The notes under the pieces were generated by a model that had not been told where the DNA came from, made no database searches, and was given only the letters and a program-made list of their open reading frames with translations. DNA of 64,000 nt. Source: Candidatus Methanofastidiosum methylothiophilum (GTDB taxonomy: Archaea > Methanobacteriota_B > Thermococci > Methanofastidiosales > Methanofastidiosaceae). The DNA lies in assembly GCA_001587575.1 (NCBI GenBank), contig LNJC01000002.1, forward strand, positions 9,418 to 73,417. The letters run 5' to 3'. Made by a program: the position numbers and the translations under genes. Positions 798 through 21,640 of this stretch are shown in pieces; the stretch's first letter is position 1; every line of letters begins with the position of its first letter.

Positions 798-1166
798 GTG
801 ATTATGATGAAATTTAGATTAAGTAAGACCTTCAAATTTGATGCAGCACACAAATTAGTTGATTATGATGGCGCTTGTGCAAATCTCCATGGTCACACAT
901 ACAAGTTGATCGTTACTGTGGAAGGTACTCCAGATGAAACTGGAATGGTTATAGATCTTTTTGGTTTAAAGAAAATAGTTACAGATAAGATAGTAAGTAA
1001 GATGGATCATTGTTTCTTAAATGATTTGTACCCGCAACCAACAGTAGAAAACATGGCAAAGGATATTTTTTTGAAACTTGAAAATGAATTTAAAAAAACT
1101 AAAGTTAATTTGTTTTCTATAAGATTATATGAAGGTGAAGGCTCTTACGTAGAGGTCTTCGCATGA
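798..1166 (+). CDS. queD: 6-carboxy-5,6,7,8-tetrahydropterin synthase (QueD/PTPS family)
   Basis: 122 aa with the CxxxHGH-type zinc motif (ACANLHGHTYKL) typical of the PTPS/QueD family. It heads the queE-folE2-queC operon. Confidence 0.8.
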   Translation: MIMMKFRLSKTFKFDAAHKLVDYDGACANLHGHTYKLIVTVEGTPDETGMVIDLFGLKKIVTDKIVSKMDHCFLNDLYPQPTVENMAKDIFLKLENEFKKTKVNLFSIRLYEGEGSYVEVFA

Positions 1167-1810
1167 AAAATCTACAAGTATCAGAAATATTTTTCTCAAT
1201 CAACGGAGAAGGGCTAGAAATAGGAAAGCCAACTGTTTTTTTAAGACTCTCGGGATGCAATCTTGACTGCAGTTGGTGTGATACGAAATATGCCAGCTAT
1301 AATGCTGTTGAAAAAAGCATTGATGAGATACTAGAAGAAATTGAAAGAAATAACAATGGTATTAAGTCAGTTCTTATTACCGGAGGAGAACCTTTACTTC
1401 AGGATATAGAAGAAATAGTTGATGTTCTGCATGAAAAAGGTTACCATATCTCAATTGAAACAAATGGTTCGATATACAATGATGTTTTATTAAAAATTGA
1501 TTTCATTAGCGTTGATATTAAGACGCCAAGCAGCAAAAATGAAACTTGTGATTTAGATATTTTCAATAAAATTGTAAATGTAATAATGAAAAGAAATGGG
1601 CAGATGAAGGCTGTTATTTCAGATAAAAACGATTACATTTTCTTAAAGAAATTTATTAATGAAAACTCTTTTAATGTGCCTCTTATAATCCAACCATGTT
1701 GGGATACACTTACCTACAAGGAGCTATGTGAATTGTATACAAAAGATCCAATAAATCATAATAATGCTAGGATATTGCTCCAGATACATAAAGTGGGAGA
1801 AATTAAATGA
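1163..1810 (+). CDS. queE: 7-carboxy-7-deazaguanine synthase (radical SAM)
   Basis: Radical-SAM cysteine motif (CNLDCSWCDTKY) and ~215 aa length. The start overlaps the queD stop. Confidence 0.8.
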   Translation: MKNLQVSEIFFSINGEGLEIGKPTVFLRLSGCNLDCSWCDTKYASYNAVEKSIDEILEEIERNNNGIKSVLITGGEPLLQDIEEIVDVLHEKGYHISIETNGSIYNDVLLKIDFISVDIKTPSSKNETCDLDIFNKIVNVIMKRNGQMKAVISDKNDYIFLKKFINENSFNVPLIIQPCWDTLTYKELCELYTKDPINHNNARILLQIHKVGEIK

Positions 1811-2601
1811 TTAACACTCAAGATGAATCACCAAAACATCAATTGAAACTTGAAAGAGTTGGGATTAAAAATCTTAAAACTCTTATCAAAATTGAAAGAA
1901 ATAATAAAGAATATATGCATATCCCAAAGATCAATATTTTCATGGATTTAACTGAAGACAAAAAAGGAGTGCACATGAGTAGATTCATCGAGAGTATTAC
2001 GGAGATACTAGAAGACGAAGTTAGAGGAGAGCATAATTCCTTGGAACAAATAGGTAAACATATCCTTGAAAAATTAAAAGTTAAACACAGTTATATCAGT
2101 GCAGAGATTGAATTTGAATCTGAAATTCCTCTTTTTGAAATAACTCCGGTCAGTAAAAAAGATACAATTGAGATACACGACATAAAAGTAAGTCTCAGAA
2201 ACAATAACGGTTCATGGATAAAAATATTGGAAGTAAGCGTTATTGGAAATACTGCATGCCCGCACGCTTTGGCTGTTAACAAGAAGGGAACTCACATACA
2301 AAGGGCAATAGGGAACTTAAGAATTGAAACAGACTTTGATAATGATATTGACCTTGAAGAGATGATAAGGGTTGTAGATAATTCATTTTCTTCTAGAGTA
2401 TTTACTTTATTAAAAACTGAAGATGAATCTTTTGTTGTTGATAGAATGCATAATAATCCTTTTTTTGTTGAAGATGTTTGCAGAAATATGTTGTCCTTAT
2501 CATTCTCTAAATTTAAAAAATCAAAAATTCATGCAGAATGTTTAAGTCAGGAGTCTATACATAGGCATGATGTTTTTGCCGAGGGGGCAATTGAAACATG
2601 A
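1807..2601 (+). CDS. folE2: GTP cyclohydrolase of the FolE2/MptA (type IB) family
   Basis: 264 aa. N-terminal region resembles FolE2/MptA proteins (KHQLKLERVGIKNLK...GVHMSRF). Its position between queE and queC argues that it supplies H2NTP for preQ0. Confidence 0.65.
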   Translation: MINTQDESPKHQLKLERVGIKNLKTLIKIERNNKEYMHIPKINIFMDLTEDKKGVHMSRFIESITEILEDEVRGEHNSLEQIGKHILEKLKVKHSYISAEIEFESEIPLFEITPVSKKDTIEIHDIKVSLRNNNGSWIKILEVSVIGNTACPHALAVNKKGTHIQRAIGNLRIETDFDNDIDLEEMIRVVDNSFSSRVFTLLKTEDESFVVDRMHNNPFFVEDVCRNMLSLSFSKFKKSKIHAECLSQESIHRHDVFAEGAIET

Positions 2602-3257
2602 AATCTGCAGTTGTATTACTTAGTGGTGGCATGGACTCTGCAGTTTGTGCAGCAATAGCAAAAAATGAAGGATTTAATCTCTTTGTTTTGCATGTTAATT
2701 ATGGACAGAGAACAAAGATAAAAGAGTATAGCTGTGCAAAAGAGTTATCTTTATTTTATAACGCTCTTGATTTCAAAGTTATTAATCTTGATTTCTTAAA
2801 AGAAATAGGAGGAAGTGGCCTAACAGATAATTCTATCGAACTACCAAAAACTGAAACTGAAGGAATACCTCCAAGTTACGTTCCTTTTAGAAATTCCATT
2901 CTTTTATCTTTAGCCACTGCATGGGCTGAAGTAGTTGGTGCAGAAGCTATTTATTATGGTGCAAATTCAATAGATTTTTCAGGGTATCCAGATTGCAGAC
3001 CTCTTTTCTTTGAAGCATTTCAGAAATTAATTGACGCCGGAACAAAAGACGAAACAAAAATTAAACTTAAAACACCTCTTGCATATATGTCAAAATCTGA
3101 CATAGTAAAGAAGGGTGTAGATCTTAATGTTCCTTTTGAAAGAACTTGGAGTTGCTACACAGAGAATGATAAGGCATGTGGCTTATGTGATTCTTGTAGA
3201 TTAAGGCTAAAAGGATTTCAAGAAGCAGGAGAAAAAGATCCAATTAAATATTCGTGA
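2598..3257 (+). CDS. queC: 7-cyano-7-deazaguanine synthase
   Basis: PP-loop ATPase motif (LLSGGMDS) and C-terminal zinc cysteines (CGLCDSCRLR). 219 aa. Confidence 0.85.
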   Translation: MKSAVVLLSGGMDSAVCAAIAKNEGFNLFVLHVNYGQRTKIKEYSCAKELSLFYNALDFKVINLDFLKEIGGSGLTDNSIELPKTETEGIPPSYVPFRNSILLSLATAWAEVVGAEAIYYGANSIDFSGYPDCRPLFFEAFQKLIDAGTKDETKIKLKTPLAYMSKSDIVKKGVDLNVPFERTWSCYTENDKACGLCDSCRLRLKGFQEAGEKDPIKYS

Positions 3258-3949
3258 GGATTCTTATGGACACTCAAAATAATTTAAATATACTGGTGGC
3301 TGAAAAGGCCTTAGAACTTCTTAAGAAAACATTAGAGAGTACAAGATTTGAAGGGGTATGGAAAAAGAAAGATGCATTGCAAATAACGGACTCAATGAAA
3401 TCGGATATCATGGCTATAAAATTCTCATATGCTGAAAAAGAGAATATTGGTGAAATAACAGCTCCGATAAAAGAAAAAATATCAAAACTTCAATCTGCTC
3501 TTGGAGAAGGCTGGAGCTCTAATTTTCTTTCCAACGCAAAAAAAGAAAATAAGACATCTACAAAAATGGGAATTGCTAAAATAATTTTTTCAATGAACAC
3601 TTTGTATTTTTTAGATAGAAGGATCAAGCAAGATAATAGATTTGGAGTGGATACCTTAGTTGGTAAAATTTTATCTGTTTCAAAAGTTTCGGATTCTCTT
3701 CTAATTTGTAATGTTGACATAAAAAGAGCCATCACAGTGTTAACAAATGATATGTCTATCAAAGAGGGAGAGGCTGTTGCTGTTTCTATTCTACCTCCAA
3801 AAGAATTCTATGGACAAGTATCTGAAGGAATGTTTTGTGGTATCAATGGTGTACTAAGGATCCAAGGTGAAGTTGGAAATAGGGCAGAAATACCCCTTGA
3901 GGCATACAAAGAAACAGTTAATATGGTCCAAGATTTCTTAAAGCATTGA
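3254..3949 (+). CDS. tRNA-binding OB-fold (Myf/Trbp111/CsaA-like) domain protein with an N-terminal extension of unknown function. The real start could be the ATG at 3266.
   Basis: The C-terminal ~100 aa match the tRNA-binding domain pattern (VGKILSV...SEGMFCG), as in the MetRS C-terminus and Trbp111. It is translationally coupled to the queC stop. Confidence 0.5.
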   Translation: MRILMDTQNNLNILVAEKALELLKKTLESTRFEGVWKKKDALQITDSMKSDIMAIKFSYAEKENIGEITAPIKEKISKLQSALGEGWSSNFLSNAKKENKTSTKMGIAKIIFSMNTLYFLDRRIKQDNRFGVDTLVGKILSVSKVSDSLLICNVDIKRAITVLTNDMSIKEGEAVAVSILPPKEFYGQVSEGMFCGINGVLRIQGEVGNRAEIPLEAYKETVNMVQDFLKH

Positions 3950-4282
3950 AGGGATAATACAAATTAGTTTTAACTCTTCATTTCCACTGTTTATATAACA
4001 GTGTAATTCATTTGGAGGAATGTATATTACATCTCCTTCTTTAACAGGTATTTTTCCATCTTCAGTTTTTAAAAACCCTTCACCTTTTAGGATATAGTTT
4101 TCATGTTCCCAAGCATGTTTATGATATGGAGAATATCCTCCCTTTTCAATTTTCATAATTCGCATAAAAAAATTTTTTGCCCCTTGAGCTTCTCCAACTA
4201 AGCTAGTTATTGAAACACCTTTGGCATCATCAGCTTCAATCTTATTTTCTTTTATTTCAATTATGTTTTTATGATAAATCAT
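3938..4282 (-). CDS. Cupin-domain protein
   Basis: 114 aa with the cupin two-motif pattern (HKHAWEHENYILKGEG ... GDVIYIPPNELH). Its start overlaps the stop of the upstream histidine kinase. Confidence 0.55.
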   Translation of the reverse strand: MIYHKNIIEIKENKIEADDAKGVSITSLVGEAQGAKNFFMRIMKIEKGGYSPYHKHAWEHENYILKGEGFLKTEDGKIPVKEGDVIYIPPNELHCYINSGNEELKLICIIPSML

Positions 4283-6108
4283 AATACCACATGTCTTTTT
4301 GGTAAGTTTACCGTGAAAGTGCTACCTTTTCCATACTCAGATTGGACATTTATTATACCGTCGTGTTTTGTAACAATATCAAGTGATATTGGAAGCCCAA
4401 GGCCTATGCCCTGCTTTAATGCATCATCTACAGTTGCCCTATAATATTTCTCAAATATTTTTTTGATTTCATCTTTCTTGATTCCAATTCCATTATCTTT
4501 GATTCTTACTTCTATTTTATCTTCTTTGTCCTCTAGCGTTACTTCTATTTTTCCACCATCATTAGAAAAATTGATTGCATTTTCAATTAGATTAATAAAA
4601 ACTTTTGTAAGCTGTTTTTTGTCCCCTTCTAAATAAAAATCTTGGCCAATCGACTTAAGTGATAAATGAATATTTCTTTTATTTGCTAATATATGAAAAT
4701 CATTTGTAATATTAATTAATAATTCTTCAATATTAATATTTTCAATGTTAAGATCTTTATTTTGAATTCCTACAGCCGTAAACTCTTCAATTTCTTTAAC
4801 CAAAGAAATCAATCTTTGAATATTTCTTTGTATGGAGTTTATTCTATTTTTATTATCAGAGTCAATTCTATCCAAATCTATTAATTCACTACTTAGACTG
4901 ATAACGGCAAGCGGATTATATAGTTCATGTGCTATCGCATCAATAAAATCTTTCTTAGCTTTATCTGACTCTTTCATTTGAATATAAGCTTCTTGAAGTT
5001 TTTCAGTTTTATTTTGAACTTCAATTTGGAGTGCTTTATTGAAATTTTCTCTAATTGAAGATGTCTTTTTTAATTTCTCCGTCATTTCATCCATTTGTCT
5101 AGAAAGGATAGCTATCTCATCATCACCTTCAAACCCCAATTTTATATTAAAATTGCCTTTACCAACTTCTTCTGCTTGGCGAGATATTTTTTCTATAGGG
5201 CTAACAATTTTTTCATTAATATAATTTCCCAAAGAATAATTTATACAGTAATCTACCAAAACAATTAGTATTACTGTAATAACAATAGTTTCAACTACAA
5301 CAGAATCAAAAGGATAACCATAGCTGATAAAGATAATTGTTATAATGGTACCTAATCCAATTATAATAATATTTATGATATATAGTATTTTTATTCTTAA
5401 AGAATCAAGTTTTTCTTTTATACTAATATCTATTTTGAAAAAGTTATACCTCAAAACAGCAGACGCGAATAAACCCATCATAAGAGAATTTGTTATTGGA
5501 AGTATTACAGTATTTCCAATTAATTCATCAATACCAAAAATTACTTTTAGTTGCCCAAAAAATATAATTAAGTTTAATAATATACTTGTTGCTATCGGTA
5601 TTAAAGTTCCAATAAATGCAAACAGAAATCTGCGTTTTTCAATAAATGACTCATTTGAGCGATATCCTGAAATAAGGATATAAAGTCCATAAATAAAACA
5701 TATTATGTAATATAAAAAAAATACATTGAATAAAGGCCCATTTACTTGTTCAAGTTTCCCGTTAATTAAATAGGTGTTTCTTATCAATAAATTGGTGATA
5801 AGACTAAGAGAGAAAAAAATGCTAATTAATATCAATATTTCTTTCCTAATTCTTATTTTCATTTTTGTAAGGCCAGAACTCCACATCAAATAAAGAGTTG
5901 GAGTCCAAATAACAAAAAATAGATTTAATTTATTCCACAGCAGAGGATAAGATCTTTCAATAACAAATAAATTTGTTAAAATTATTCCTGCTATTATAAA
6001 AGCTAGAATAGCAAATATTACATTTATTCTTGATTTATAATTAGATTTAAGAGCGTATATGCCCAATGTTAAATTTAAAAAAAAAGTAATAAATATAATA
6101 GAATTCAT
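4279..6108 (-). CDS. Sensor histidine kinase with a multi-pass (~7-8 TM) N-terminal sensor domain
   Basis: Hydrophobic N-terminal ~300 aa, then a HAMP-like linker. HisKA H-box (IAHELYNPLAVI) and HATPase_c N/G boxes (IENAINFS, DNGIGI, GLGLGLPI) are present. Confidence 0.8.
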   Translation of the reverse strand: MNSIIFITFFLNLTLGIYALKSNYKSRINVIFAILAFIIAGIILTNLFVIERSYPLLWNKLNLFFVIWTPTLYLMWSSGLTKMKIRIRKEILILISIFFSLSLITNLLIRNTYLINGKLEQVNGPLFNVFFLYYIICFIYGLYILISGYRSNESFIEKRRFLFAFIGTLIPIATSILLNLIIFFGQLKVIFGIDELIGNTVILPITNSLMMGLFASAVLRYNFFKIDISIKEKLDSLRIKILYIINIIIIGLGTIITIIFISYGYPFDSVVVETIVITVILIVLVDYCINYSLGNYINEKIVSPIEKISRQAEEVGKGNFNIKLGFEGDDEIAILSRQMDEMTEKLKKTSSIRENFNKALQIEVQNKTEKLQEAYIQMKESDKAKKDFIDAIAHELYNPLAVISLSSELIDLDRIDSDNKNRINSIQRNIQRLISLVKEIEEFTAVGIQNKDLNIENINIEELLINITNDFHILANKRNIHLSLKSIGQDFYLEGDKKQLTKVFINLIENAINFSNDGGKIEVTLEDKEDKIEVRIKDNGIGIKKDEIKKIFEKYYRATVDDALKQGIGLGLPISLDIVTKHDGIINVQSEYGKGSTFTVNLPKRHVVL

Positions 6109-6157
6109 ACTACTCGAATCCTATTTTTAGAATTATAAGCTTTGCACTGGCTCTTCA

Positions 6158-6211
6158 AACCAAAAATTTGGTACTGGTCCCTTAAACCAAAAATTTGGTA
6201 CTGGTCCTTTA
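6158..6211. repeat. Perfect-but-one 27-bp tandem direct repeat (2 copies), aaccaaaaatttggtactggtcc(c/t)tta
   Basis: Read directly from the sequence. Copy 1 is 6158-6184, copy 2 is 6185-6211, with a single mismatch. It sits ~50-100 bp upstream of the histidine-kinase start (6108). Confidence 0.9.
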
Positions 6212-6341
6212 ACTTCATTTGTTATTCCATTTTTCATTAAATAGGCCTTTATTAATTCATGTGTAGTTATATCCATAAAATCACCCACAAAACTTTTTTT
6301 AGCAGAATATATAAATTTAACTAAACATACTTGCGATTTTC

Positions 6342-7295
6342 TCAATTAATAATATCTTTTAAGACATTTTCTCTCTTATCTTTAAATTTACTAATATTTA
6401 GTAATATTTTATTTGAAGCATCCGTGAAAAATTCATTTAAGTAATATAAATTATAAGATTTAATTGAATCAATCGCCATTAGTTGGTACTTTAATGATAA
6501 ATTTAGTGTATTTTCTAAAATATCCGTTTCAATAAATCCCGCAGCAATATCCATGATTTCAGCTTTCCCTTTATAAACTAAACTTTCTTTCTCAAGATAT
6601 TGGATAACTTTAACAAGAGGATATGTAATCTGACTAGAATTAAAATCATCTTTCCACCCTAGAACATCATTAAATAACTGCATGGATGTTGCCCAGTACT
6701 CCATCATTAAGAGGAAATCATTTCTTTTACGTTTGTTTGAACCCTCAAGGTATAAGTATGATAAAATTGGGATTCTGAGGTGAAAAGCTTTTCTAGCCAT
6801 AAGTTCATAATCAAAATTTGACATATCTTCTGTAATTTCACCTTTATAATTATATCTTTGTTTTTCATAAAGAACAGCGTTTGAAAATTGTATCAAAGTT
6901 TCTTCTAGATCTTTCATAAAATTCTCATTTCTACCAATAAGACTAAAACATATATCGTACATTTTGAATTCACATATATTAGATAAAAGAAGCAAGTTCC
7001 TATCTATTGTTTCTGGATTGTCAAGTATGTCATCAATAATTCTCAAATGCATTATGCCGTAAACGTCAAGATTTGAAAGCTTCCTTGAAATATCTTTTTT
7101 ATTTTCAATATCAAATCCCTCTGATAACCAATAAGGAAATAGAAGAAAAGTATTGAATCCTGCCATTGAAACTTTGAATCTATCAAGAAAGGAAATTCCT
7201 AGATCAGAAATTGGTTTGTCAAGACCGCCTATAAAAGAATAAACGTCACCAAGTACAAGATTAATTTCTTCACTAAAATCATCAAAAAAAATCAT
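6342..7295 (-). CDS. Hypothetical protein, possibly isoprenoid-synthase (class I terpenoid/prenyl synthase) fold
   Basis: 317 aa. An Asp-rich motif IIDDILD (DDxxD) is followed ~120 aa later by NDVLGWKDD (NSE/second Asp-rich-like). The start overlaps the ksgA stop. There is no other recognisable domain, so the fold assignment is weak. Confidence 0.3.
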   Translation of the reverse strand: MIFFDDFSEEINLVLGDVYSFIGGLDKPISDLGISFLDRFKVSMAGFNTFLLFPYWLSEGFDIENKKDISRKLSNLDVYGIMHLRIIDDILDNPETIDRNLLLLSNICEFKMYDICFSLIGRNENFMKDLEETLIQFSNAVLYEKQRYNYKGEITEDMSNFDYELMARKAFHLRIPILSYLYLEGSNKRKRNDFLLMMEYWATSMQLFNDVLGWKDDFNSSQITYPLVKVIQYLEKESLVYKGKAEIMDIAAGFIETDILENTLNLSLKYQLMAIDSIKSYNLYYLNEFFTDASNKILLNISKFKDKRENVLKDIIN

Positions 7296-8083
7296 AGTAT
7301 TCCTTCAAGCCAATCACTTATATATTTTATCTCAAATATATCTAGCGTGTATACCCGTCTATCTTTATATGGGATATCCTCCAGTGATTGCCTGAATTCT
7401 TTACCTTTTCCAAATATATCTCGTGAATGATATATTGCCTTATGGACAATTTTGTTTCTATGTGTAAAAAGCGCCCTGACAGTATCTTCAAACACTTCGT
7501 TGATTTCAAATTTTTTATCTAGTTTTATATGGGCAATCGATGACCATACCTTTGGTTCTGGGTAGAAAGCTGAAGGTGGGACATCTGTTAGAATTTCAAT
7601 TTCTGAATAGATATTAGACATTACTGACAACCTAGAATATTCATCTTCCCCAGGTTTTGAAATAAATCTCCTCGCAAATTCTTTCTGGTAAAGCAATGTT
7701 GCAGTTTCAAATTTCATTTCAAATAACTTGAATGTAATTTGTGAAGAAATCCCATATGGTATGCTTGAAACAACAGTATCAAAATTTTTATCTTCAAATT
7801 TTAGAAAATCTTCATTTACAATTTCCACGTTTTCAAAATTATACTCCTGTTTTAAGATATTGACAAGATTACTATCCATCTCAACAGCAACAACTTTATC
7901 ACAAACTTTAGACAGTTTCTCAGTCAGAAAACCTAATCCTGGCCCTATCTCAAGGACTTTACCCTTGCCATAAGAAGCCATGAATCTTAAAACTTCATCA
8001 GAAATAAGAAAATTTTGAGAAAATCTTTTGGACGGCCTTATATTATATTTATTCAAAAGATAAAAAAGTTTATTTGGTATCAT
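7292..8083 (-). CDS. rsmA: 16S rRNA (adenine1518/1519-N6)-dimethyltransferase (KsgA/Dim1)
   Basis: SAM-binding motif VLEIGPGLGFLT, FSQNFL N-terminal motif and the IPY catalytic motif. Confidence 0.85.
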   Translation of the reverse strand: MIPNKLFYLLNKYNIRPSKRFSQNFLISDEVLRFMASYGKGKVLEIGPGLGFLTEKLSKVCDKVVAVEMDSNLVNILKQEYNFENVEIVNEDFLKFEDKNFDTVVSSIPYGISSQITFKLFEMKFETATLLYQKEFARRFISKPGEDEYSRLSVMSNIYSEIEILTDVPPSAFYPEPKVWSSIAHIKLDKKFEINEVFEDTVRALFTHRNKIVHKAIYHSRDIFGKGKEFRQSLEDIPYKDRRVYTLDIFEIKYISDWLEGIL

Positions 8084-8667
8084 TCCATCTCTTTAGGCGG
8101 TCTGCTTACAAAAATAGAATATCTATCAACTTCTTGCATCTCGTTAATTATTCTATTTATAATCATCTTCTTTGGATCAGGTATAGATGGAACTCTATCT
8201 TTTATGTCATTAAATGAATTGAAGGGGCCCTTTTTTCTTTCCTCTAGGATTTCATTCATTAATTTTTTCCCAAGACCTGGCAATAGCTCAAGCTTGTGGT
8301 ATCTAATTGATATTGGCCCAGAGGTATTGAAAAATTCAACAAATTTTTGTTCATTTTCAGATACTATCTTTTCAACCATAAATTTTAATTCGCCTTTTGC
8401 AGTTGCACTAAGCTCATTGTAGCGAAGTCTTTTTTTAACTCGGGCTATTTTGTCCCTTTTCCCCTTTCCTATGAAAACTCTTTCATACATTGAGAGATCA
8501 GCTGATGGAACTACCTCTAACAAAGAAAAATAATTTTCACCCATTATATGTGCAATGGGTGTTCTCTTGTGAGGGGGGAGATTTTCACCTGGAAGTCCCT
8601 GTGGCAGGTAATCCAAAACTATTCCGTACTCCTCAAATACTCCAGTTCTCATCATCATAACTTTCAC
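8080..8667 (-). CDS. DUF655-family predicted RNA-binding protein (HhH)
   Basis: 195 aa. It holds the conserved archaeal position between rpoF and ksgA. A helix-hairpin-helix-like LPGLGKKLMNEI segment is present. Confidence 0.6.
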   Translation of the reverse strand: MKVMMMRTGVFEEYGIVLDYLPQGLPGENLPPHKRTPIAHIMGENYFSLLEVVPSADLSMYERVFIGKGKRDKIARVKKRLRYNELSATAKGELKFMVEKIVSENEQKFVEFFNTSGPISIRYHKLELLPGLGKKLMNEILEERKKGPFNSFNDIKDRVPSIPDPKKMIINRIINEMQEVDRYSIFVSRPPKEME

Positions 8668-9009
8668 TTATTTTTTGTATTTGGCCATAATTTCCAATAT
8701 AGAGTTTATTTCTTCATCATCCAATATTAGCCTTTCTTTTGAGAATAGAACCTCAATGTCTTTTTTGTCTTCCGGAACAATGTCTACTATCTTGACTATA
8801 TTTTCTTTTTTTAATCTTGGAACTTTTTCAGTAAGTTCTGCTGTGGCCTTTTCTATATCCTCAATTTCCATTTTACTAAACTTATTTGTATAATCTAGTG
8901 AGATACCTTGTTCGTATCCCAGTTCTATTTTTTCGGCTCTACTGGAAAGTATCTCTTTCACCTTTGCTATTGGAACAATGTCCTCAGAGATTATTTCCTT
9001 TCCTATCAT
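8668..9009 (-). CDS. rpoF: DNA-directed RNA polymerase subunit F (Rpo4)
   Basis: 113 aa, acidic. It holds the conserved position between L21e and DUF655 in the archaeal L21e-rpoF-DUF655-ksgA cluster. Confidence 0.65.
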   Translation of the reverse strand: MIGKEIISEDIVPIAKVKEILSSRAEKIELGYEQGISLDYTNKFSKMEIEDIEKATAELTEKVPRLKKENIVKIVDIVPEDKKDIEVLFSKERLILDDEEINSILEIMAKYKK

Positions 9010-9024
9010 GAAAGAACCTCTATC

Positions 9025-9321
9025 TTAAAAAACCTGTTTTTTCATATGTTCAGGTCTTGAAATAATGGTTTTTTCCTTATTTCCATCCATTATAGAAAGT
9101 AGATAAGCTGAACCTCTCTTTCCAACTACCTTTCCTGTTCTTCCGTGAAATCTTGGGAAGGGCATACCTTTGTGGACAGATGGTTCTAAAATAATGTGTA
9201 CTGAGTCTCCTACATCAAATTCCTGAAGGATTCTTGATACTGGAACTTTTCCTCTTGTTCTCACATCTTTTGTTAGTTTACCTCTTGTCTTGATCCTGAA
9301 ACCATGAGATTTTCTACCCAT
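9025..9321 (-). CDS. rpl21e: 50S ribosomal protein L21e
   Basis: 98 aa, basic, N-terminal [16 protein letters not shown] consistent with L21e. Confidence 0.85.
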
Positions 9322-9323
9322 TA

Positions 9324-10526
9324 TTACACCTTCTCTTCAATACTAATTACATTTAGCAATACGCACTTTACATTCTTACCCAATAATTCTGCAATACTGG
9401 GATTCGTTCTCGCCTCATCCCCTGAGATAAGTTCTTTAATATAAAGTCCACCATCACAGTATATCTCTAGCGATGAGCAATTTTCCTTAGAGGTAAGAAC
9501 TTTATAAACCTTTCTAATTCTAGTTTTATCGGCTCTTCTATGCACAACTCTGTTTGGAGTTTCTTGATATATGTCCCGATCAATAAAAAATTCTTCAATT
9601 TTATTCTTTTCTTCTTCATTTAGACATACATCTATCTCTGCCAAGTATGTTTTTCTTAAGTGGGTGTTCTTTATTTTTTCTACAACTTCTTTTTCAACAA
9701 AACAAAGTTCTGAAATTTTTACTTTTCCTTCGTTCATTTTGTTTATTTCTTGTTCGAGTCTTTGAAGGTCAATATTCCTAATTTTTGGAGATTTTATCTC
9801 TAAAACAAAAGGTCTGCCATTTCCAAGCATCAAAACGTCGATATCTTCTCTACCTGCTCCATGAAAAGAGGAATCACTGCCTTTTGTTTCCTTTAAGAAT
9901 AGTTCAGTTATTAATTCCTCAATGCTCTCATCATACATTTTTCCTGTATTCCCGCATTTTGAGCAACCCTTGCCTTTACATCTTCTGCATAGCCATTTAG
10001 TCTGAGGGAGGCCTCTAACTAGCTTATTATATCGGCCATAAATAAATAATGGATTAATAAAATAATCAATTTTTGATTCATATGGATGAAGAAGTATTGT
10101 AACATCTTCTTTTTCTCTCTTGAACTCTTTTCCAATAATTGATCCTATCTTCTTACCAAGTTCCCTATTAAGTTCTTGTTTAATACTCTCTTGGTATTGA
10201 AGACAATATTTCTCTTTAAGCATCTCCTCTTTTTTCATAATTTCGTCAGGAATTTTAGTACCCGCATGAAAGGTGGCAAATTCAAAATCTGGAGAAATAT
10301 TATTTACAACTTCATCTGTTCTTTCAAAAATGTTGTCGCAAAGAAAACAAGGATTTTGAAGATCTATATCAGAGACTAATTCAGGATTCAAAGAAATCAA
10401 TAGATTCCTTATTATCTTACCTCGCCTTTCATTAGTAGATGTCGAAATTTTGCCGAACTGTCTTCCAAGGCAATGATTACAAAGAATATGTTCTTCTAGA
10501 ATTTCCTTGGATGTTTTTAGTATCAT
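9324..10526 (-). CDS. pus10: tRNA pseudouridine(54/55) synthase Pus10
   Basis: 400 aa. N-terminal Zn-ribbon cysteines (CNHCLGRQ...CFLCDN), a second cluster ([17 protein letters not shown]), and Pus10-type domain order. Confidence 0.7.
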
Positions 10527-10541
10527 GTAATCTTTATCTCT

Positions 10542-13346
10542 TTAAAGACCCTTAAAGGATTTATCAATTAATCCGTAGCAGATCTGCAACTTCTTTACAA
10601 TTTCGTGCTCTGTAGCAGAATCTTTATGGAAGGGTATGCTTTCGAATTTCTGAAGTAGTGCATTGTATTTGTTCTGGGCTTCCCATATCTTTGAAAGAAG
10701 AACTTCTTTGTCTCTATACATCTTAATAAATTCTGTACATCCTTCTTTTATCTCAATGATATCTCTTTCATACTGTATTTCATAGTCTATTTGCTTTATT
10801 AAATTCTGACATTGCTGTATTCTTTCTTTAAGAAGCTCTTGAGATTTCATATCTAATTCATTTTCAAACTGCTTGTAATTAGCAACTATATCTTTGTATT
10901 CACCTATCATCCCCATGACAAGTTCCTTATCTGAAGGCTCAACGTAGGAGTACCTTGTAATAAATCCACCAATCTTGTTCACAATTTTATCTATCTTACT
11001 CTGTACTATTTCTTTTTCAGCGTCTTTTATTCTATTACTAAATTCTGACATCAATGCTTCTATTTCAAGCCTCAACTGTTCGTCGTATTCCATTAATAGG
11101 CCCTGCTTTTCTTTTATCAATGTCTGATACTCGTCTTTTGCTTCTGCAGGATTTCTTAAGACCTGTGCAAAACTATATCTTTCAAGCAATCCTTTAATTT
11201 TTCTAATAAAGTATTGAAGCTCTTCTTCTTTTACTATCTCTGCGTGTTCTACTCTCTTCTTTAATCTTGCAAGTATTTGATCAATATCGTCTCTCTTGTC
11301 TTCGGCTATTATCGATAGAATCTCGTTTCTTGTCTTCATTAGATCTCTGTAAAGGTCACGCACCTCAAATAAGTTAGAATTAATATATCCCTGGTCAAAT
11401 TTTATGTCAAAAGTCTGTGCTCTTCTTAGAAGAATATCTATCTTTTGGAGTTCGTCTTCCTGGACGTCTTTTAATTTAGCGCTTATTTTTTCTATCTTTC
11501 TTTCAATCTCTATTTCTTGTTCTGAATTTGCAAAGACTATTATGTCCTCTTTATCTTTTAGAAGTTTTTGGAATTCTTCCTTTGCTTTTATTATATTATC
11601 CAGTATTTTCTCTTCGGTGAACTCTCCAATTTTCTTATTTAGATATTCTATAAATTCGTCAACGTAGCCTTTCTTGCCATCTTCTATTTCTTTTATTCTA
11701 TTGTCAAAGGCATTAAGATTAATATTGATGGCCTTTTCAAGTTCATAATCAATTCCAACAGGTAGATTTTTTTGCTCTCTTCTAAGGCTGTTGTAAAGTA
11801 CTACCGCTTCTTTTATGTTTGCATCTATATGTTCTTTAGGATATTTTTCCAGTATGGAAATAGTTTTCTGGAGAAAATCCTCTAATATTTTGATCTTAGC
11901 CTCTTCAGTTTTGATTACTTTTTCTTGGATTTCAGATAAATTACTTTCAATTACAATTTCAAGATCTGCAGGTAATTTCTTTTTTTCTTCAAGAAGTTTG
12001 TGATACATCTGCCTTGCTGATTCCAAATCTGTATTAATTTTAGAATAGTCAAATTCTTCCAATGCCTTGTAAGAATTTTCTAAAAAGTTCTCAAGTTCTC
12101 TTTTTTTAATCGCTTCTACATTCTTAACTCTCAAGTAAAGATCGTTTAGATTTTTCTCTATTTTTTTGCTTAATTCATTGGAAAATCTTGGATATAGCCT
12201 TTGCATATCCCTTGACAAAGCAACATAAGTTCTCTCTGCTTCAGATAAATTACCAGCAATATACTCTTCAGTGTATTTTTCAAGAGCCCTTCCAGTTCTA
12301 TCATAAACAAAAGATAAATTTTCAATTTCCCTTTTTTCTACATCCTCTATTCTTGAAAGAAGAGTGTCAATTGAGTTTTTAACTTTCTCTTCAATTTTAG
12401 AGTCAATTGTACCTTTCAAAGAATTATTTATTTTGCTATATTTTTCATAAACTGTTCTAGAATCCAATGGATTTTCTAGGATATACTGTTCAGTAAAAAT
12501 AGGGAGAAGCTTTTCAACTTCATCAAGTATAGTCAAGAGATCCATTCTTTTCTTATCTTCTATTTCCTTTATTCTCTGACTTAAAATTTTAAGATTATTA
12601 TCAATAAGTGTTACCCTTCCACCTTTTAGTTGCTTCTTCTTCTCAATTAAAGAAGCATAAATCTGCCTAGTCTCATCAAAGTTTTCTGTAATGTACTGGT
12701 CATTCAAATACTTATTTTTCTCTTCGATTTCTTTTAAGAATAGTTCGTAATCTTGTTTCAAGACATTCTCAGCTTTTTCTATTTTATCTTCAATATTTAA
12801 CAAATATTTTTTTATCTCTCCTTCAATCTCGGGAGATATATTTTTTGGAAGTTTTTTATTTTCAACATCAAGAAGCGAAAAAATCTCAAGCACTTCAGTG
12901 TAATTGTTAAGTATATACTCTTCGGTAAAAACCTCATCCTTGTTTTTTACTTTTCTTAGGAAATTAAGAAGCGTTAGCTCTTGTTCTTTTTCTGTCTGGT
13001 CTATTCTGTACTTTAGCTCTAATAAGTTTGAGTCAATTTTTTTCTGGATATCCCAGACTATGACTTTTAATTCATCTATCTCGTCATAGATTTTTTGTTC
13101 TTCTATTTCTGTTGTTTCTTTGCCACTAACAGTCTCAACGTTTTCTCTAATCTTTTGGAGTTTCTCTTCAAAATTTTCAATTTCCCACTGTTTAATCGAT
13201 TCAATATTATGTGATTTTAATTTCTCTAGATATTCTTTGTATCCGTCAAGTAACTTTGTTATTTCAAGGATTCTCTCTTCATTAGATGTTTCAACTTGAG
13301 AAATCCTCTCAGCCAATTCATCTATTTTTTTGTTTTCAAATGGCAT
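10542..13346 (-). CDS. Large (934 aa) internal-repeat alpha-helical/coiled-coil protein of unknown function
   Basis: About 12 tandem ~65-aa modules share the pattern ...LEKYt-EEYI-xN--EAxxxYxxLxxEKKxLP...NLxxIxxRIKxIEdxK. The protein is highly charged (E/K-rich), with no TM segment or signal peptide. Confidence 0.6.
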   Translation of the reverse strand: MPFENKKIDELAERISQVETSNEERILEITKLLDGYKEYLEKLKSHNIESIKQWEIENFEEKLQKIRENVETVSGKETTEIEEQKIYDEIDELKVIVWDIQKKIDSNLLELKYRIDQTEKEQELTLLNFLRKVKNKDEVFTEEYILNNYTEVLEIFSLLDVENKKLPKNISPEIEGEIKKYLLNIEDKIEKAENVLKQDYELFLKEIEEKNKYLNDQYITENFDETRQIYASLIEKKKQLKGGRVTLIDNNLKILSQRIKEIEDKKRMDLLTILDEVEKLLPIFTEQYILENPLDSRTVYEKYSKINNSLKGTIDSKIEEKVKNSIDTLLSRIEDVEKREIENLSFVYDRTGRALEKYTEEYIAGNLSEAERTYVALSRDMQRLYPRFSNELSKKIEKNLNDLYLRVKNVEAIKKRELENFLENSYKALEEFDYSKINTDLESARQMYHKLLEEKKKLPADLEIVIESNLSEIQEKVIKTEEAKIKILEDFLQKTISILEKYPKEHIDANIKEAVVLYNSLRREQKNLPVGIDYELEKAININLNAFDNRIKEIEDGKKGYVDEFIEYLNKKIGEFTEEKILDNIIKAKEEFQKLLKDKEDIIVFANSEQEIEIERKIEKISAKLKDVQEDELQKIDILLRRAQTFDIKFDQGYINSNLFEVRDLYRDLMKTRNEILSIIAEDKRDDIDQILARLKKRVEHAEIVKEEELQYFIRKIKGLLERYSFAQVLRNPAEAKDEYQTLIKEKQGLLMEYDEQLRLEIEALMSEFSNRIKDAEKEIVQSKIDKIVNKIGGFITRYSYVEPSDKELVMGMIGEYKDIVANYKQFENELDMKSQELLKERIQQCQNLIKQIDYEIQYERDIIEIKEGCTEFIKMYRDKEVLLSKIWEAQNKYNALLQKFESIPFHKDSATEHEIVKKLQICYGLIDKSFKGL

Positions 13347-16529: not shown

Positions 16530-17762
16530 ATGAAATCTTTGGATCAAGTTGATATTGAAATTTTTAATGCTATTGAGGATGAAAAAACTCGTCAAAACGA
16601 AGGACTTGAACTTATAGCAAGTGAGAATTTTACAAGTAATGCGGTCCTTGAAGCACAAAGATCCGTTATGACAAATAAATATGCCGAAGGATATCCTGGA
16701 AAAAGATATTATGGCGGATGTAAATTTGTTGATGTTGCAGAAACTTTAGCCATTGAAAGAGCAAAAAAACTTTTCAAGGCAGACCATGCAAATGTGCAAG
16801 CACACTCAGGAACACAAGCTAATATGGCAGTTTATTTTGCATGTTTAGAAGTTGGAGACACAGTTCTCGGGATGGACCTTTCATGCGGAGGGCATTTGTC
16901 GCACGGGTCTCCAGTTAATTTTTCTGGTAAATTTTACAACTTTGAATTTTATGGCGTTAATAAGAATACATATAGAATTGATTTGAATGAAGTAAGGCAA
17001 AAGGCTCACGAATTAAAACCCAAACTAATTGTGACTGGAGCAAGCTCTTACCCTAGAGAGATTGATTTCAAAGGATTTAGAGAGATTGCAGACGAAGTAG
17101 GTGCCCTTTTGATGGCCGACATGGCACACATAGCAGGACTTGTAGCATGTGGATTACACAACTCTCCAATTCCTTACTGCGATTTTGTAACATCCACTAC
17201 TCACAAAACTCTAAGGGGACCAAGAGGAGGATTAATTCTTTGCAGAGAAGAGCACAAAAAAGCAGTCGATAAAGCCGTATTTCCATTTGCCCAAGGTGGC
17301 CCTATGATGCACACAATTGCTGCAAAAGCAGTATGTTTCAAAGAAGCTATGGGAGAAGACTTTATCAATTACCAGAGACAAATTGTTAAGAACTGTAAAG
17401 TTCTATCTGATGAACTATTATCTTTGGGATATGAACTTATCACAGGTGGAACTGATAATCATCTGCTATTACTGGATTTAAGAAAAAATAACATAACTGG
17501 TAAAGAAGCCCAGGAATTATTGGAAAGTGCCGGAATCACAGCAAATAGAAACGTAATCCCTTACGATCCAAAACCTCCAAACGTTACATCTGGCCTTAGA
17601 ATCGGAGTTCCCGCAATAACTTCTAGAGGGATGAAGGAACAAGAAATGAAACAGATAGCAGGAATGATTCATAGAGTTCTCCAGAAGAAGGACGATTGCG
17701 CACCGGAAAAAGTAAGGGCGGAGGTAAGGGATCTCTGCAAAAAATTCCCCATTAATCTATGA
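16530..17762 (+). CDS. glyA: Serine hydroxymethyltransferase
   Basis: PLP-lysine motif [14 protein letters not shown] and SHMT-wide conservation (ELIASENF). Confidence 0.9.
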
Positions 17763-18613
17763 CAGCAAAAATCCTCGATGGCAAGGCTTTAGCACTAAAA
17801 GTTACAAATGAACTTTCAGAAATAGTTGCAGACTATAAAAAAAGAGGCCTTTACCCTAAATTGGCAACTGTTTTAGTGGGCAGTGACCCTGCATCTAGAG
17901 TATATGTCAATCTAAAAAAGAAAGATTCAGAGAAGATAGGAATTGATTATGAAGAATTTTATTATGATGATATTTCTGAAGAAGATCTTCTTTTGTTAAT
18001 TGATAAATTAAATAATAGGGCAGACATCCATGGAATTCTTGTTCAGCTACCTTTACCTAAACATATTGATACCAACAAAATATTGGAAAAAATTGATCCA
18101 TTGAAAGATGTCGATGGATTTAATCCACTTAACGTTGGCAGAATTCTTCTAAATATTTCGGATTTATTTCCCTGTACCCCAAAAGGCGTAGTTAAGATAT
18201 TAGACGAATATAATATACCTATAGAAGGCGCTGATATTACTATAATTAACAGAAGTAACATCATTGGAAAACCTTTAGCGGCTATGATGATTAATCGTGG
18301 AGGAACAGTTACTGTAGTTCACACTAAAACAAAGAATTTGAAAGAAAAGGTAAGAAATGCAGACATAGTCATTGTGGGAGTTGGGAAAACAGATTTTTTA
18401 ACTTCTGATATGGTAAAAGAAGGAGCAGTAGTTGTTGACGTTGGCATAACTCGTGAAATAGATGGCATCAAGGGTGATGTAAAATATGACGAGGTCAGTA
18501 AAAAAACATCATATATTACTCCTGTCCCAGGTGGAGTAGGGCCTATGACAAGGGCGATGCTTCTGGAAAACCTTATAATCTGCTTCTTAAAACAGAACGA
18601 CTGTGCAAGATGA
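17759..18613 (+). CDS. folD: Bifunctional 5,10-methylene-THF dehydrogenase / methenyl-THF cyclohydrolase
   Basis: FolD motifs ([10 protein letters not shown]; DVDGF; PCTP; [10 protein letters not shown]). Confidence 0.9.
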
Positions 18614-19916
18614 TTTTTTAGAGTCGTTAAAACTTATTGGTTCTAAACCCGGACTTGAACGATTAAATTCTAAACTTGGCCTAGAAAGAATAAGATATCT
18701 TCTTGAGAAAAGCGGAACAGAATGGGAAGATATCCCGGTAGTTCATATAGCCGGAACCAATGGAAAAGGGTCAGTTGTTACTTTTATTTCAAATATATTG
18801 GCACAATCTAACTACAAAGTAGGATCTTATATTTCACCTCATCTAATTGATATATATGAAAGGATAAAAATCAATGACAATAATATTCCTTCAAAAGATT
18901 TTGATAAAATCCTTTCAGAATTAAAATATTACTGCCAAGAAGCAGAGAAATTAAAGGAAATTGGTAGCCCTACTTTTTTTGAAGTTCTAACAGCTATTTC
19001 AATAATATATTTTGTCCAAAAAAAAGTTGAGGTAATAGTATCTGAAGTCGGCCTTGGAGGTAGACTTGACGCGACTAATGTATTAAATGGCAAAGCAATC
19101 GCAATTACAAATATATCACTTGACCATCAAGAAATATTGGGGAACAGTAAAGAAGAAATATTAACTGAAAAAGCAGGAATAATCAAAAAAGGCTCAGTAG
19201 TTTCTTCTTGTATTGATTTGGATTTGGCAACTCTACTTCAAAATCTCTGCATTGAAAAAGAGGCTAGACTAAAACTATTTACCAAAGATTTTAGGGTAAT
19301 TGAGAAACAAATTAGTTTCGATGGGTCTGTTTTTGACTATTTTTCTGACCACAACAATTTCAAAGATATTAAACTAAAAATGATTGGAAGGCATCAAATA
19401 GCAAACGCTGCATGTGCAATCAGTCTCGCAGAATCTATGTCTTACTTTGGGCTCCATCAAATAACAGAGGAATCAATCAGAAAAGGGCTTGAAAAATCAA
19501 TATGGCCGGGAAGGTTTCAGGTATTGAAAAAAAGTCCAATGATTATGGTGGACGTTGCACATAATGTAGACGGTGCAAAATCTCTTTCAGAAACTTATAA
19601 TAGTTTATTTAAGGATTCAAATACACTTTTACTTGTTGGGATATCTCAAGACAAAGATATTGAAGGAATTCTTAAAGAATTGTCTAAGATATCGAAAAGA
19701 ATAGTATTGACAACTATACCCCCAAGATGTGCCAATATTGGCACTCTTGAAGAAAAAGCAAAGAAATATTTCAAAGATATAAGATCATTTGAAGACCCGC
19801 TTAAAGCTTATGACTATTGTAGGTCAAACCTTAAAAAACATGATAAATTAATCATCACGGGGTCCATATACGTGGCGGGGTATATATTGAAAGGAAGGAA
19901 ATTACTTGGCAGTTGA
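18603..19916 (+). CDS. folC: Folylpolyglutamate synthase / dihydrofolate synthase (Mur-ligase family)
   Basis: Mur-ligase P-loop HIAGTNGKGS, ~437 aa. Context is between folD and fhs. Confidence 0.75.
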   Translation: MQDDFLESLKLIGSKPGLERLNSKLGLERIRYLLEKSGTEWEDIPVVHIAGTNGKGSVVTFISNILAQSNYKVGSYISPHLIDIYERIKINDNNIPSKDFDKILSELKYYCQEAEKLKEIGSPTFFEVLTAISIIYFVQKKVEVIVSEVGLGGRLDATNVLNGKAIAITNISLDHQEILGNSKEEILTEKAGIIKKGSVVSSCIDLDLATLLQNLCIEKEARLKLFTKDFRVIEKQISFDGSVFDYFSDHNNFKDIKLKMIGRHQIANAACAISLAESMSYFGLHQITEESIRKGLEKSIWPGRFQVLKKSPMIMVDVAHNVDGAKSLSETYNSLFKDSNTLLLVGISQDKDIEGILKELSKISKRIVLTTIPPRCANIGTLEEKAKKYFKDIRSFEDPLKAYDYCRSNLKKHDKLIITGSIYVAGYILKGRKLLGS

Positions 19917-21027: not shown

Positions 21028-21577
21028 TTATTCCTGAATCGGTAATTATCAAGTCCATTTTTACATCGTGTTTTTGAACAGGCAACGATTCAAAAATCTG
21101 AAATTCATAAGCAAGACCAACTTTAAGGCCGGTAGATTCTAATAAGAATCTATCAAAATAACCTCCTCCTCTACCAAGTCTTTCAAATCCAGTTCCAAAT
21201 GCTAGTCCTGGAATGAATAGTATTTCAATTTCTTTAGGATTAATACTTTTGGTATGATCTTTTGGTTCTAGAATATTAAAATTACCAATTTTGAGATCCT
21301 CTAAACTAGTTATTTTTCTAACCTCAAGCGAATTATTCTCTTTTATTGTCAAAGGAACATATACTGATTTCCCAATTTCTATTGATTTATTGATTAAATC
21401 AATTGTATCGACTTCCTTTTCTTTTGATACATAGGAAAAAATATTCTTTGCCCTAGAATAGTCTGGAAGATTATAAATAAAATCTCTTATTTTTTGATCC
21501 ATGATGCCTTTTTTAGTAGAATCTAATCCTTCCATTTTTTCTTTAATTAGCATTCTTATATCAGACTTAGAAAGCAT
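21014..21577 (-). CDS. 5-formyltetrahydrofolate cyclo-ligase
   Basis: 187 aa with the MTHFS family pattern (MLSKSDIR...; C-terminal GxGGGYYDR-like RGGGYFDRF). Confidence 0.75.
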   Translation of the reverse strand: MLSKSDIRMLIKEKMEGLDSTKKGIMDQKIRDFIYNLPDYSRAKNIFSYVSKEKEVDTIDLINKSIEIGKSVYVPLTIKENNSLEVRKITSLEDLKIGNFNILEPKDHTKSINPKEIEILFIPGLAFGTGFERLGRGGGYFDRFLLESTGLKVGLAYEFQIFESLPVQKHDVKMDLIITDSGIISPV

Positions 21578-21640
21578 AAACTAAATAACGAAAACTTTTT
21601 AAAAAGATTTACAATTGAATCTGAAATCAAGATGGTTTAA

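Follow-up and report, generated by a model that had tools for sequence, protein, structure and literature searches.

What is an open reading frame (ORF) annotated as a hypothetical protein doing at the tail end of an archaeal ribosome-biogenesis operon? The 64,000 nucleotide (nt) stretch of DNA analyzed here, hereafter the window, comes from Candidatus Methanofastidiosum methylothiophilum, an uncultured, methyl-reducing methanogen of anaerobic digesters. The ORF, which we call Q, lies at 6342..7295 on the minus strand, begins with ATG, and encodes 317 amino acids (aa); the database entry that is 100% identical to it is a hypothetical protein from this organism. Its start overlaps the ksgA stop codon by the 4 nt ATGA (7292..7295, minus strand), as the original prediction had read from the window, and this overlap is conserved in the Methanofastidiosum clade. 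Sequence comparison and structure modeling identify Q as a soluble protein with the fold of the trans-isoprenyl diphosphate synthase family (hereafter trans-IDS) and a predicted prenyltransferase of the PalQ/ComQ functional class. Directly downstream of Q are a small peptide gene (X) and a sensor histidine kinase gene (P). The original prediction overlooked both, and they are the genes that explain Q. We consider it reasonably probable that the three genes form a prenylated-peptide signaling cassette like ComQXP and PalQXP, apparently the first such cassette to be predicted in Archaea.

The first step is to establish what kind of protein Q is. Single-sequence searches of Pfam, NCBIfam, and the PDB sequences with Q gave no match, in line with the earlier statement that it carries no other family signature; PF00348, the Pfam family of canonical trans-IDS, and the IdsA and GGPP_syn models of NCBIfam were likewise without a match. 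A phmmer search of 1.84 billion protein cluster representatives recovered 94 relatives, mostly ~300-330 aa long and 19-27% identical to Q (e.g., P0065, E value 4.3e-7; P0073, 1.7e-6; P0109, 2.5e-4). A profile search of a 5.8-billion-protein database found, among the matches listed, close orthologs of Q only. The 32 close homologs (70-81% identity) are all from Methanofastidiosa or metagenomes, and they keep both Asp-rich motifs as well as the ksgA overlap. An AlphaFold model made from close orthologs only had a predicted local distance difference test score (pLDDT) of 51.9 and was unusable. The AlphaFold2 (AF2) model made from a 45-sequence alignment that included distant relatives had a pLDDT of 95.4 and a predicted template modeling score (pTM) of 0.91. 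In a Foldseek search of the PDB with this model the top matches were all trans-IDS (TM 0.75), i.e., the all-alpha fold of the class I isoprenoid synthases. A profile of the Q family matched farnesyl diphosphate (FPP) and hexaprenyl synthases among the PDB sequences (E 1e-6), with the Asp motifs aligned on the first and second Asp-rich motifs of these enzymes (FARM and SARM, respectively), and the FARM of Q aligns with that of the FPP synthase (FPPS) 5h9d. The family consensus reads LPFWL ... QD(D)xxD ... QLxDDxxDWxxDL.

The relatives also place Q within a family. Members of the PalQ cluster, named after the Paenibacillus alvei enzyme that prenylates a C-terminal Trp, were picked from among the relatives of Q by organism, accession, and N-terminus. 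P0109, for example, is P. chitinolyticus QAV21050.1; the paper that describes PalQ (PMC10853753; Table S1 and Fig. S6) gives this species and the N-terminus MKWFTDYKEEL. An hhalign comparison of the archaeal clade with 11 PalQ-cluster proteins gave a full-length match of 99.4% (E 2e-21, 288 columns), and comparisons with the other subgroups of the family gave 98.3-99.9%. The archaeal Q clade is a separate subfamily, ~21-25% identical to PalQ and without a curated model. The distribution of the family is patchy and clade-restricted.

The trans-IDS fold raises the possibility that Q is a divergent chain-elongating enzyme, e.g., a geranylgeranyl diphosphate (GGPP) synthase for archaeal lipids. 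GGPP is needed by Archaea, and the best structural and PDB-profile matches of Q are FPP, GGPP, and polyprenyl synthases. The lack of a match to the PF00348, IdsA, and GGPP_syn models points the other way, as does the patchy distribution of the family, since a lipid enzyme would be universal. The residues bear on this question as well. The FARM of Q, D88-D89-I-L-D92 (7020..7034, minus strand), lies in the string IIDDILD (residues 86-92) and is a predicted site for Mg2+ and prenyl diphosphate. The string NDVLGWKDD (residues 209-217) belongs to a degenerate or pseudo-SARM, Q206-L-F-N209-D210-V-L-G213-W214-K-D-D217 (6645..6680, minus strand), for which we predict a role in indole recognition through a catalytic Gln/Asp pair. 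D88 and N209 are 121 residues apart, very near the spacing of ~120 that had been noted before. Conservation shows that neither motif is accidental: 15 orthologs (70-81% identity) all share D88, D89, D92, N209, D210, K215, D216, and D217, and Q206 is likewise invariant in orthologs. Across 75 distant representatives of the family, D88 is kept in 74 and D92 in all 75; in the region of the second motif the counts are 63 for Q206, 73 for D210, 66 for W214, and 75 for D217. Of these representatives, 59 have D and 15 have N at position 209; for position 213 the figures are 65 (D) and eight (G). The N209-D210-V-L-G213 of Q is therefore a minority state, and a full SARM D-D-x-x-D is absent. A chain-elongating enzyme uses the SARM to position isopentenyl diphosphate (IPP), and this motif is lost in Q (N-D-V-L-G). 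Ord1 shares this motif pattern and performs no elongation with IPP (PMC12510300). Q is not a chain-elongation enzyme; we regard that reading, a GGPP synthase included, as highly improbable.

The same residues fit the published picture of the 'trans-IDS-like prenyltransferases', a group comprising ComQ, PalQ, the P domain of ChrPC, and the related Ord1, whose characterized members all prenylate Trp (PMC13290415). In these enzymes the FARM holds one Mg2+ plus the diphosphate, and D88/D92 of Q are equivalent to D89/D93 of PalQ and D85/D89 of Ord1 (PMC10853753, PMC12510300). A Gln located before the SARM and the second Asp of the SARM handle the indole N-H; this catalytic pair is Q197/D201 in PalQ, Q216/D219 in Ord1 (PMC10853753, PMC12510300), and corresponds to Q206/D210 in Q. 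The PalQ D200A/D204A mutant remains active (PMC10853753), and ComQ requires the form NDxxx or GDxxx, in which only the second SARM Asp is kept (PMC5331326). Q has the FARM together with a pseudo-SARM of exactly this form. To judge from these motifs, Q carries the complete catalytic set of the class, with a ComQ-like pseudo-SARM.

This also settles how the original prediction of a class I terpenoid or prenyl synthase should be amended. The fold holds, and so does the prenyl-synthase branch of the idea; its description of Q as a divergent prenyl-diphosphate-binding protein or a repurposed fold was essentially correct. The terpene-synthase branch does not hold. A terpene synthase or cyclase would pair the DDxxD with an NSE/DTE-like motif in NDVLGWKDD, and N209-D-x-x-G213-x-x-x-D217 formally fits (N/D)Dxx(S/T/G)xxx(E/D). 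Weak matches to Terpene_syn_C_2 also occur in three distant relatives and one fusion protein. We found neither a terpene-synthase alpha domain as best structural match nor the DDxxD/NSE-DTE metal triad in Q. Because an invariant Gln precedes N-D-x-x-G, as published for the trans-IDS-like prenyltransferases, we read NDVLGWKDD as an acceptor-side motif for Trp prenylation, and not as the second metal-binding motif it had been taken for. Q is not a terpene synthase, and there is very little to recommend cyclization of a free terpenoid as its function.

If Q is a Trp prenyltransferase, what is its acceptor? The gene X (6133..6276, minus strand) begins 65 nt past the Q stop codon and encodes a 47-aa precursor, MDITTHELIKAYLMKNGITNEVK-GPVPNFWFK-GPVPNFWFEEPVQSL, with a conserved leader and two Trp-containing cores. 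A 27-bp tandem duplication (6157..6212, minus strand; TRF period 27, 2.1 copies, 96% matches) gives two identical GPVPNFWF cores. X directly follows Q in 21 orthologous loci, where it encodes 42-49 aa. The 23-aa leader, MDKTTHELIK(A/M)YIKENEG..., has a ratio of nonsynonymous to synonymous polymorphism (pN/pS) of 0.42, and synonymous changes are seen within conserved cores, i.e., X is under coding constraint. The cores are repeated two to three times per precursor and share P-x-[F/L]-W-[F/I/M], with one Trp per core; examples of core peptides are GPVPNFWFK and LSQPNFWFEASRLHCWFAQ. Variants among the genomes are PNFWFEA with RLHCWFAQ, APEFWIQ with AKPEFWIE and AKPAFWISE, APVLWMD with APVKYYFWMTE, and TPDLWIE with AKPALWIYE. 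The last Trp is fourth from the C-terminus in every variant except that of the window; most ComX precursors carry their modified Trp third or fourth from the end (PMC5331326). X and the kinase gene appear to have a TATA box and Shine-Dalgarno sequence of their own. The TATA-box-like TTTATATA (6308..6315, minus strand) may represent a distinct archaeal promoter serving X and P, and TTTATA(T/A)AT stands at the same place in 10 loci. A perfect Shine-Dalgarno GGTGAT (6280..6285, minus strand) ends 3 nt before the X start, and AGGTGAT(T/A)(T/A)ATG is present in 10/10 loci. A longer, 70-aa ORF initiated at TTG (6133..6345) was rejected in favor of the ATG at 6276, because conservation covers this ATG together with its GGTGAT, and the genome L010 has ATA as its in-frame codon upstream.

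The neighborhoods of more distant relatives also place the family beside peptides. A 39%-identical Q homolog from another Methanofastidiosia lineage (L004) has an X-like peptide downstream of it, MERKEFEKIKEYVKENREILEKVVLIGPPIVIYSWY (L004 3070..3207), and adjoins a response regulator, not ksgA. Distant relatives adjoin NHLP-type or Frankia-type precursors with Trp in the C-terminal part. Their other neighbors are radical-SAM/SPASM enzymes, methyltransferases, and transporters, and in one case a seven-transmembrane (7-TM) kinase with regulators. Six family members are fusions (P0063, P0068, P0072, P0081, P0106, and P0107), variously with geranylgeranyl reductase, squalene-hopene-cyclase-like (one of them also GldB-like), or radical-SAM/SPASM domains; this suggests prenyl reduction, cyclization, or other tailoring on peptides. 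The context of the Q family is therefore one of peptide modification and isoprenoid chemistry, and never of ribosome biogenesis. Two further contexts were noted in passing. AF_0136_C proteins adjoin two different archaeal family members (L004 99..1526, fused to a receiver domain, and L029 2183..2749), and may be output regulators of archaeal cassettes. In the cluster of a bacterial relative (L030 4142..6411), a pair of 97-aa paralogs (…SEWKVSAEWKN…) is encoded, and the prenyltransferase gene is followed by that of an NHLP-like peptide of 131 aa in which the motif NWWW occurs; the cluster also has a 7TMR-DISM kinase, a pair of response regulators, and an enzyme of the radical-SAM/SPASM type. 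It looks like a richer form of the Q-X-P theme.

The published repertoire of the class offers another acceptor, as Ord1 acts on free substrates (PMC12510300). Q could by analogy prenylate free tryptophan, indole, or another small aromatic compound, with X an unrelated neighbor. A Trp-core peptide gene stands beside Q in all 21 loci and beside the 39% homolog, and Trp-containing precursors adjoin distant relatives, among them PalQ, whose pairing with PalX has been proven by experiment (PMC10853753). These associations make a small-molecule acceptor very unlikely in our view, and X the probable substrate.

The third gene of the locus suggests what a prenylated X would be for. P (4279..6108, minus strand) encodes a 609-aa sensor histidine kinase with a 7-TM N-terminal domain (Pfam HisKA_7TM, E 7e-11), HAMP, HisKA (PF00512), and HATPase_c, and is the predicted receptor. 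The 7-TM sensor domain (5431..6096, minus strand; the Pfam match covers residues 5-226) is a hypervariable block. P starts 24 nt beyond the X stop codon in the window and 12-25 nt beyond it in every orthologous locus, and wherever an orthologous locus extends far enough to include the kinase, the kinase comes after X. Q, X, and P are thus adjacent on the minus strand and conserved in order, as in a ComQXPA-type locus. P does not have the HisKA_3 domain, NarL-type, that ComP carries. We describe P as analogous to ComP and PalP and make no claim of orthology to ComP.

If X were the ligand of P, the two would be expected to vary together, and they do. Compared with related genomes, the window shows identities of 82-97% in the housekeeping operon and 75-79% in Q, 40-50% in X, and 50-74% in the 7-TM part of the kinase. 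Identity in the kinase N-terminal part (HK_N) falls to 51-64% between genomes whose KsgA proteins are 91-100% identical. The clearest case is the pair of nearly identical genomes L026 and L012, in which KsgA and DUF655 are 100%, Q is 95%, and the kinase linker is 97% identical, whereas the X cores are unrelated and the kinase sensors just 64% identical. At the DNA level these two loci are 96-100% identical up to the X leader, only 48-72% over the X core and the first ~240 kinase codons, and then 90-97%. Divergence in blocks is also found in L026/L015 and L009/L015, and L025, an independent assembly, carries the L012 variant too. Between the pherotype-like variants Q itself varies little (91-95% identity). 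Concerted, bounded diversification of peptide and sensor typifies pherotype systems, comQXP among them (PMC4008528), and the co-divergence of X core and kinase sensor resembles the Bacillus pherotypes. As an observation on the block itself, its edges in L012/L025 versus L026 (locus ~6100-6870) are sharp and recombination-like, and the right-hand edge falls where the Pfam 7-TM domain ends.

A different use of a prenylated X has to be weighed here. Q may prenylate X to make an antimicrobial or membrane-active lipopeptide, i.e., a natural-product peptide made on the ribosome and modified after translation (a RiPP), with the kinase either an unrelated neighbor or a regulator of induction or immunity. 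Most distant relatives are found in RiPP-type clusters (radical-SAM/SPASM, transporters, methyltransferases, WelO5-like) rather than by kinases, peptides with prenylated Trp can act on membranes (PMC13290415), and the 64-kb window yielded no response regulator. However, the kinase lies within 12-25 nt of X in every orthologous locus, no immunity or export gene is present in the cassette locus, and the 7-TM sensor diverges together with the X core between flanks that are 96-100% identical, the pattern expected of a ligand and its receptor. It is mainly because of this bounded joint diversification that we prefer signaling to a purely antimicrobial role, which we think unlikely but would still give some weight.

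In the signaling cassette as we picture it, the FARM of Q (D88/D92) would bind an allylic prenyl diphosphate via one Mg2+, and the Gln206/Asp210 pair would position and activate the Trp indole. The prenyl group, possibly archaeal-type (C20) in chain length, would pass to the Trp residues of the multi-core precursor X. One or more lipidated peptides would then be processed, exported, and so released, and the released peptide would be bound and sensed by the 7-TM domain of the kinase, presumably with a regulatory output. The outcome would be a strain-specific ('pherotype') cell-cell signal, as for the Bacillus ComQXP(A) and Paenibacillus PalQ-PalX-PalP systems.

Several observations weigh against this signaling model. 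In an hhalign comparison of the archaeal clade with 10 genuine ComQ sequences there was no match (0.4%), and by sequence Q falls outside the ComQ family (IPR033965, within PF00348). The wider Q family did match ComQ, weakly yet in register (22.6%, E 9e-4). Only database sequences entered this test, and the ComQ bait used to retrieve them proved 100% identical to a database ComQ. The X leader is not NHLP-like and matched no known leader or peptide family, and X had no match in Pfam, including NHase_alpha, NHLP, and Frankia_peptide. No protease or exporter was found in the cassette locus. A ComA-like response regulator is not adjacent to P, and none was found in the 64-kb window with Pfam on 20 neighboring ORFs or with tblastn using the regulator of L004. 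P matches the Paenibacillus PalP-like kinase in the catalytic core only. Because of this, and because P is of the HisKA type, it is linkage and co-variation that argue for its receptor role. The kinase also shows a fair amount of divergence between species in its C-terminal domain (65-71% identity with the window), and most of the data are metagenome assemblies.

It remains to account for the operon to which Q is attached. Upstream of Q on the minus strand are ksgA (7292..8083; Pfam RrnaAD, E 7.8e-47) and, identified with Pfam, the genes for DUF655 (8080..8667), RpoF/Rpb4 (8668..9009), L21e (9025..9321), and Pus10 (9324..10526). Together they form the housekeeping operon Pus10-L21e-RpoF-DUF655-KsgA (7292..10526, minus strand), which is context and lies outside the function of the cassette. 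The identical ATGA overlap is present in L001-L003 and kept throughout the clade. From the overlap we infer that Q is translationally coupled to this operon, and Q expression is therefore probably constitutive. We read the coupling as a means of constitutive enzyme expression, with X and the kinase under a promoter of their own. One might instead suppose, as the coupling to ksgA suggests and as its conservation across the Methanofastidiosum clade could indicate, that Q is ribosome- or RNA-related and prenylates an rRNA, a tRNA, or a ribosomal component. However, neither the 39% homolog nor any of the distant relatives examined shows this linkage, Q has the higher rate of evolution when set against the genes of the operon (75-79% vs. 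82-97%), and it has no RNA-binding feature. We give this reading almost no credence and rejected it, as we did the terpene cyclase and the chain-elongating prenyl synthase. The attachment of Q to the ribosome operon looks incidental. The operon context has no visible functional meaning, given that the 39% homolog lies by a response regulator and the other relatives by precursors, radical-SAM enzymes, or kinases.

Other genes near the cassette were noted as follows. Directly upstream of Pus10 is a gene for a coiled-coil-like protein of 934 aa, highly charged and, it appears, with internal repeats, that has no Pfam match on record (10542..13346, minus strand); it occupies this position in all Methanofastidiosum loci and is 87-93% conserved. 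Beyond P are a cupin gene and then tRNA-binding and preQ0 genes. The cupin gene encodes a 114-aa Cupin_2 protein (3938..4282, minus strand), and its start overlaps the kinase stop codon. It is probably outside the cassette core, because it is present here and absent after the kinase in L001-type genomes. A preQ0/archaeosine-type set (QueE-like radical SAM, FolE2, and QueC), followed by a tRNA-binding-domain protein, borders the cassette beyond the kinase (1163..3949, plus strand). Further away, a tetrahydrofolate (THF)-type C1 cluster occupies 16530..23305, with SHMT, FolD, a Mur-ligase/FPGS-like protein, a major facilitator superfamily (MFS) transporter, 5-formyl-THF (5-FTHF) cyclo-ligase, and formate-THF ligase. 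Methanogens usually rely on tetrahydromethanopterin (H4MPT), which makes a THF-type cluster notable in this methanogen lineage.

The broadest form of our proposal is that Methanofastidiosum uses Trp-prenylated ribosomal peptides as strain-specific pheromones, with a co-evolving 7-TM histidine kinase as their sensor. If so, it would have the first peptide-based quorum sensing, the first prenylated RiPP, and the first pherotype system in Archaea. We advance it tentatively, with confidence just short of even. To our knowledge, reported archaeal cell-cell signals are acyl-homoserine-lactone-like compounds and diketopiperazines. We know of no peptide pheromone systems in Archaea, and prenylated-tryptophan pheromones have been regarded as a Firmicute specialty. 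Our literature searches found no description of archaeal peptide pheromones, archaeal prenylated RiPPs, or a Q-X-P locus. A 2014 census found comQXPA-like loci in Firmicutes only (PMC4008528). The locus is compact and, with three genes, a directly testable archaeal candidate, and its natural 'pherotype' variants predict which peptide should match which receptor. If the proposal is true, the newly recognized class of trans-IDS-like peptide prenyltransferases extends to a new domain of life, and X represents a new precursor type (short leader, repeated cores, internal Trp) interesting for peptide-lipidation biocatalysis. It would also give a handle on the social behavior of uncultured members of anaerobic-digester communities. 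For annotation the lesson is that a 'hypothetical protein' joined to a universal ribosome-biogenesis operon can belong functionally with its downstream neighbors.

How does the locus compare with known systems? Q is set apart from the canonical trans-IDS (FPPS, GGPP synthase, and long-chain enzymes; PF00348) by the missing PF00348 match, the loss of the SARM DDxxD, and a context of peptide and kinase instead of lipid or quinone synthesis. Ord1, the all-alpha-helical indole/tryptophan farnesyltransferase (PDB 9v4g; PMC12510300), is ~10-15% identical to Q; it belongs to an indolosesquiterpene pathway, where its acceptors are free indole or Trp, and it has no precursor peptide or kinase. The P + C fusions of ChrPC type (PMC13290415) have likely counterparts in the family, as P0068, P0072, P0106, and P0107 are fused C-terminally to squalene-hopene-cyclase-like domains; we infer that they are ChrPC-type by analogy with the described architecture, and they match the archaeal clade at 99.0% in hhalign. 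Q differs in being a P domain on its own, and its locus holds no cyclase partner.

PalQ-PalX-PalP of Paenibacillus alvei (PMC10853753), consisting of a C-terminal Trp prenyltransferase, an NHLP precursor, and a histidine kinase, includes a full-length homolog of Q. The FARM falls at near-equal numbering in the two enzymes (PalQ D89/D93, Q D88/D92), and Q197/D201 of PalQ corresponds to Q206/D210. In both clusters a precursor gene lies directly behind the enzyme gene with a kinase alongside (we re-observed the Paenibacillus cluster in L031), and in both precursors the acceptor is likely to be a Trp that comes after aromatic residues, as in the ...RRFFW end of PalX and in ...NFWF and CWF of X. 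The differences are several. Q, at ~21-25% identity, would be outside the published sequence similarity network (SSN) cluster (~32% threshold, PMC13290415), and the first and fifth Asp of the SARM are replaced (N209, G213). X has a 23-aa non-NHLP leader and two to three repeated cores, with Trp internal or fourth from the end and not strictly C-terminal as in PalX. P is on the same strand, and its HisKA_7TM sensor lacks BLAST similarity to the N-terminal part of the Paenibacillus kinase. The host is an archaeon, and Q is joined to a ribosome-biogenesis operon.

ComQXPA of Bacillus subtilis and relatives (PMC5331326, PMC4008528) shares the logic of the locus and its same-strand order of isoprenyl transferase, ~50-aa Trp-containing pre-peptide, and multi-TM histidine kinase. 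Q shares with ComQ the FARM and a SARM reduced to NDxxx, the form that ComQ requires. The Trp of ComX is third or fourth from the C-terminus, and the last Trp of X is fourth except in the window. In both systems the peptide and the N-terminus of the receptor are strongly polymorphic at strain level, and neither system has a dedicated exporter or protease. Q lies outside the ComQ sequence family, however (null in both PF00348 and hhalign), and is little polymorphic; P is of a different HisKA type and has no adjacent ComA-like regulator, and X is multi-core. Firmicutes already provide examples of the enzyme class and of the Q-X-P logic. What is new is the archaeal host, the separate subfamily, the short-leader, multi-core precursor with internal Trp, the different sensor kinase, and the pherotype evidence.

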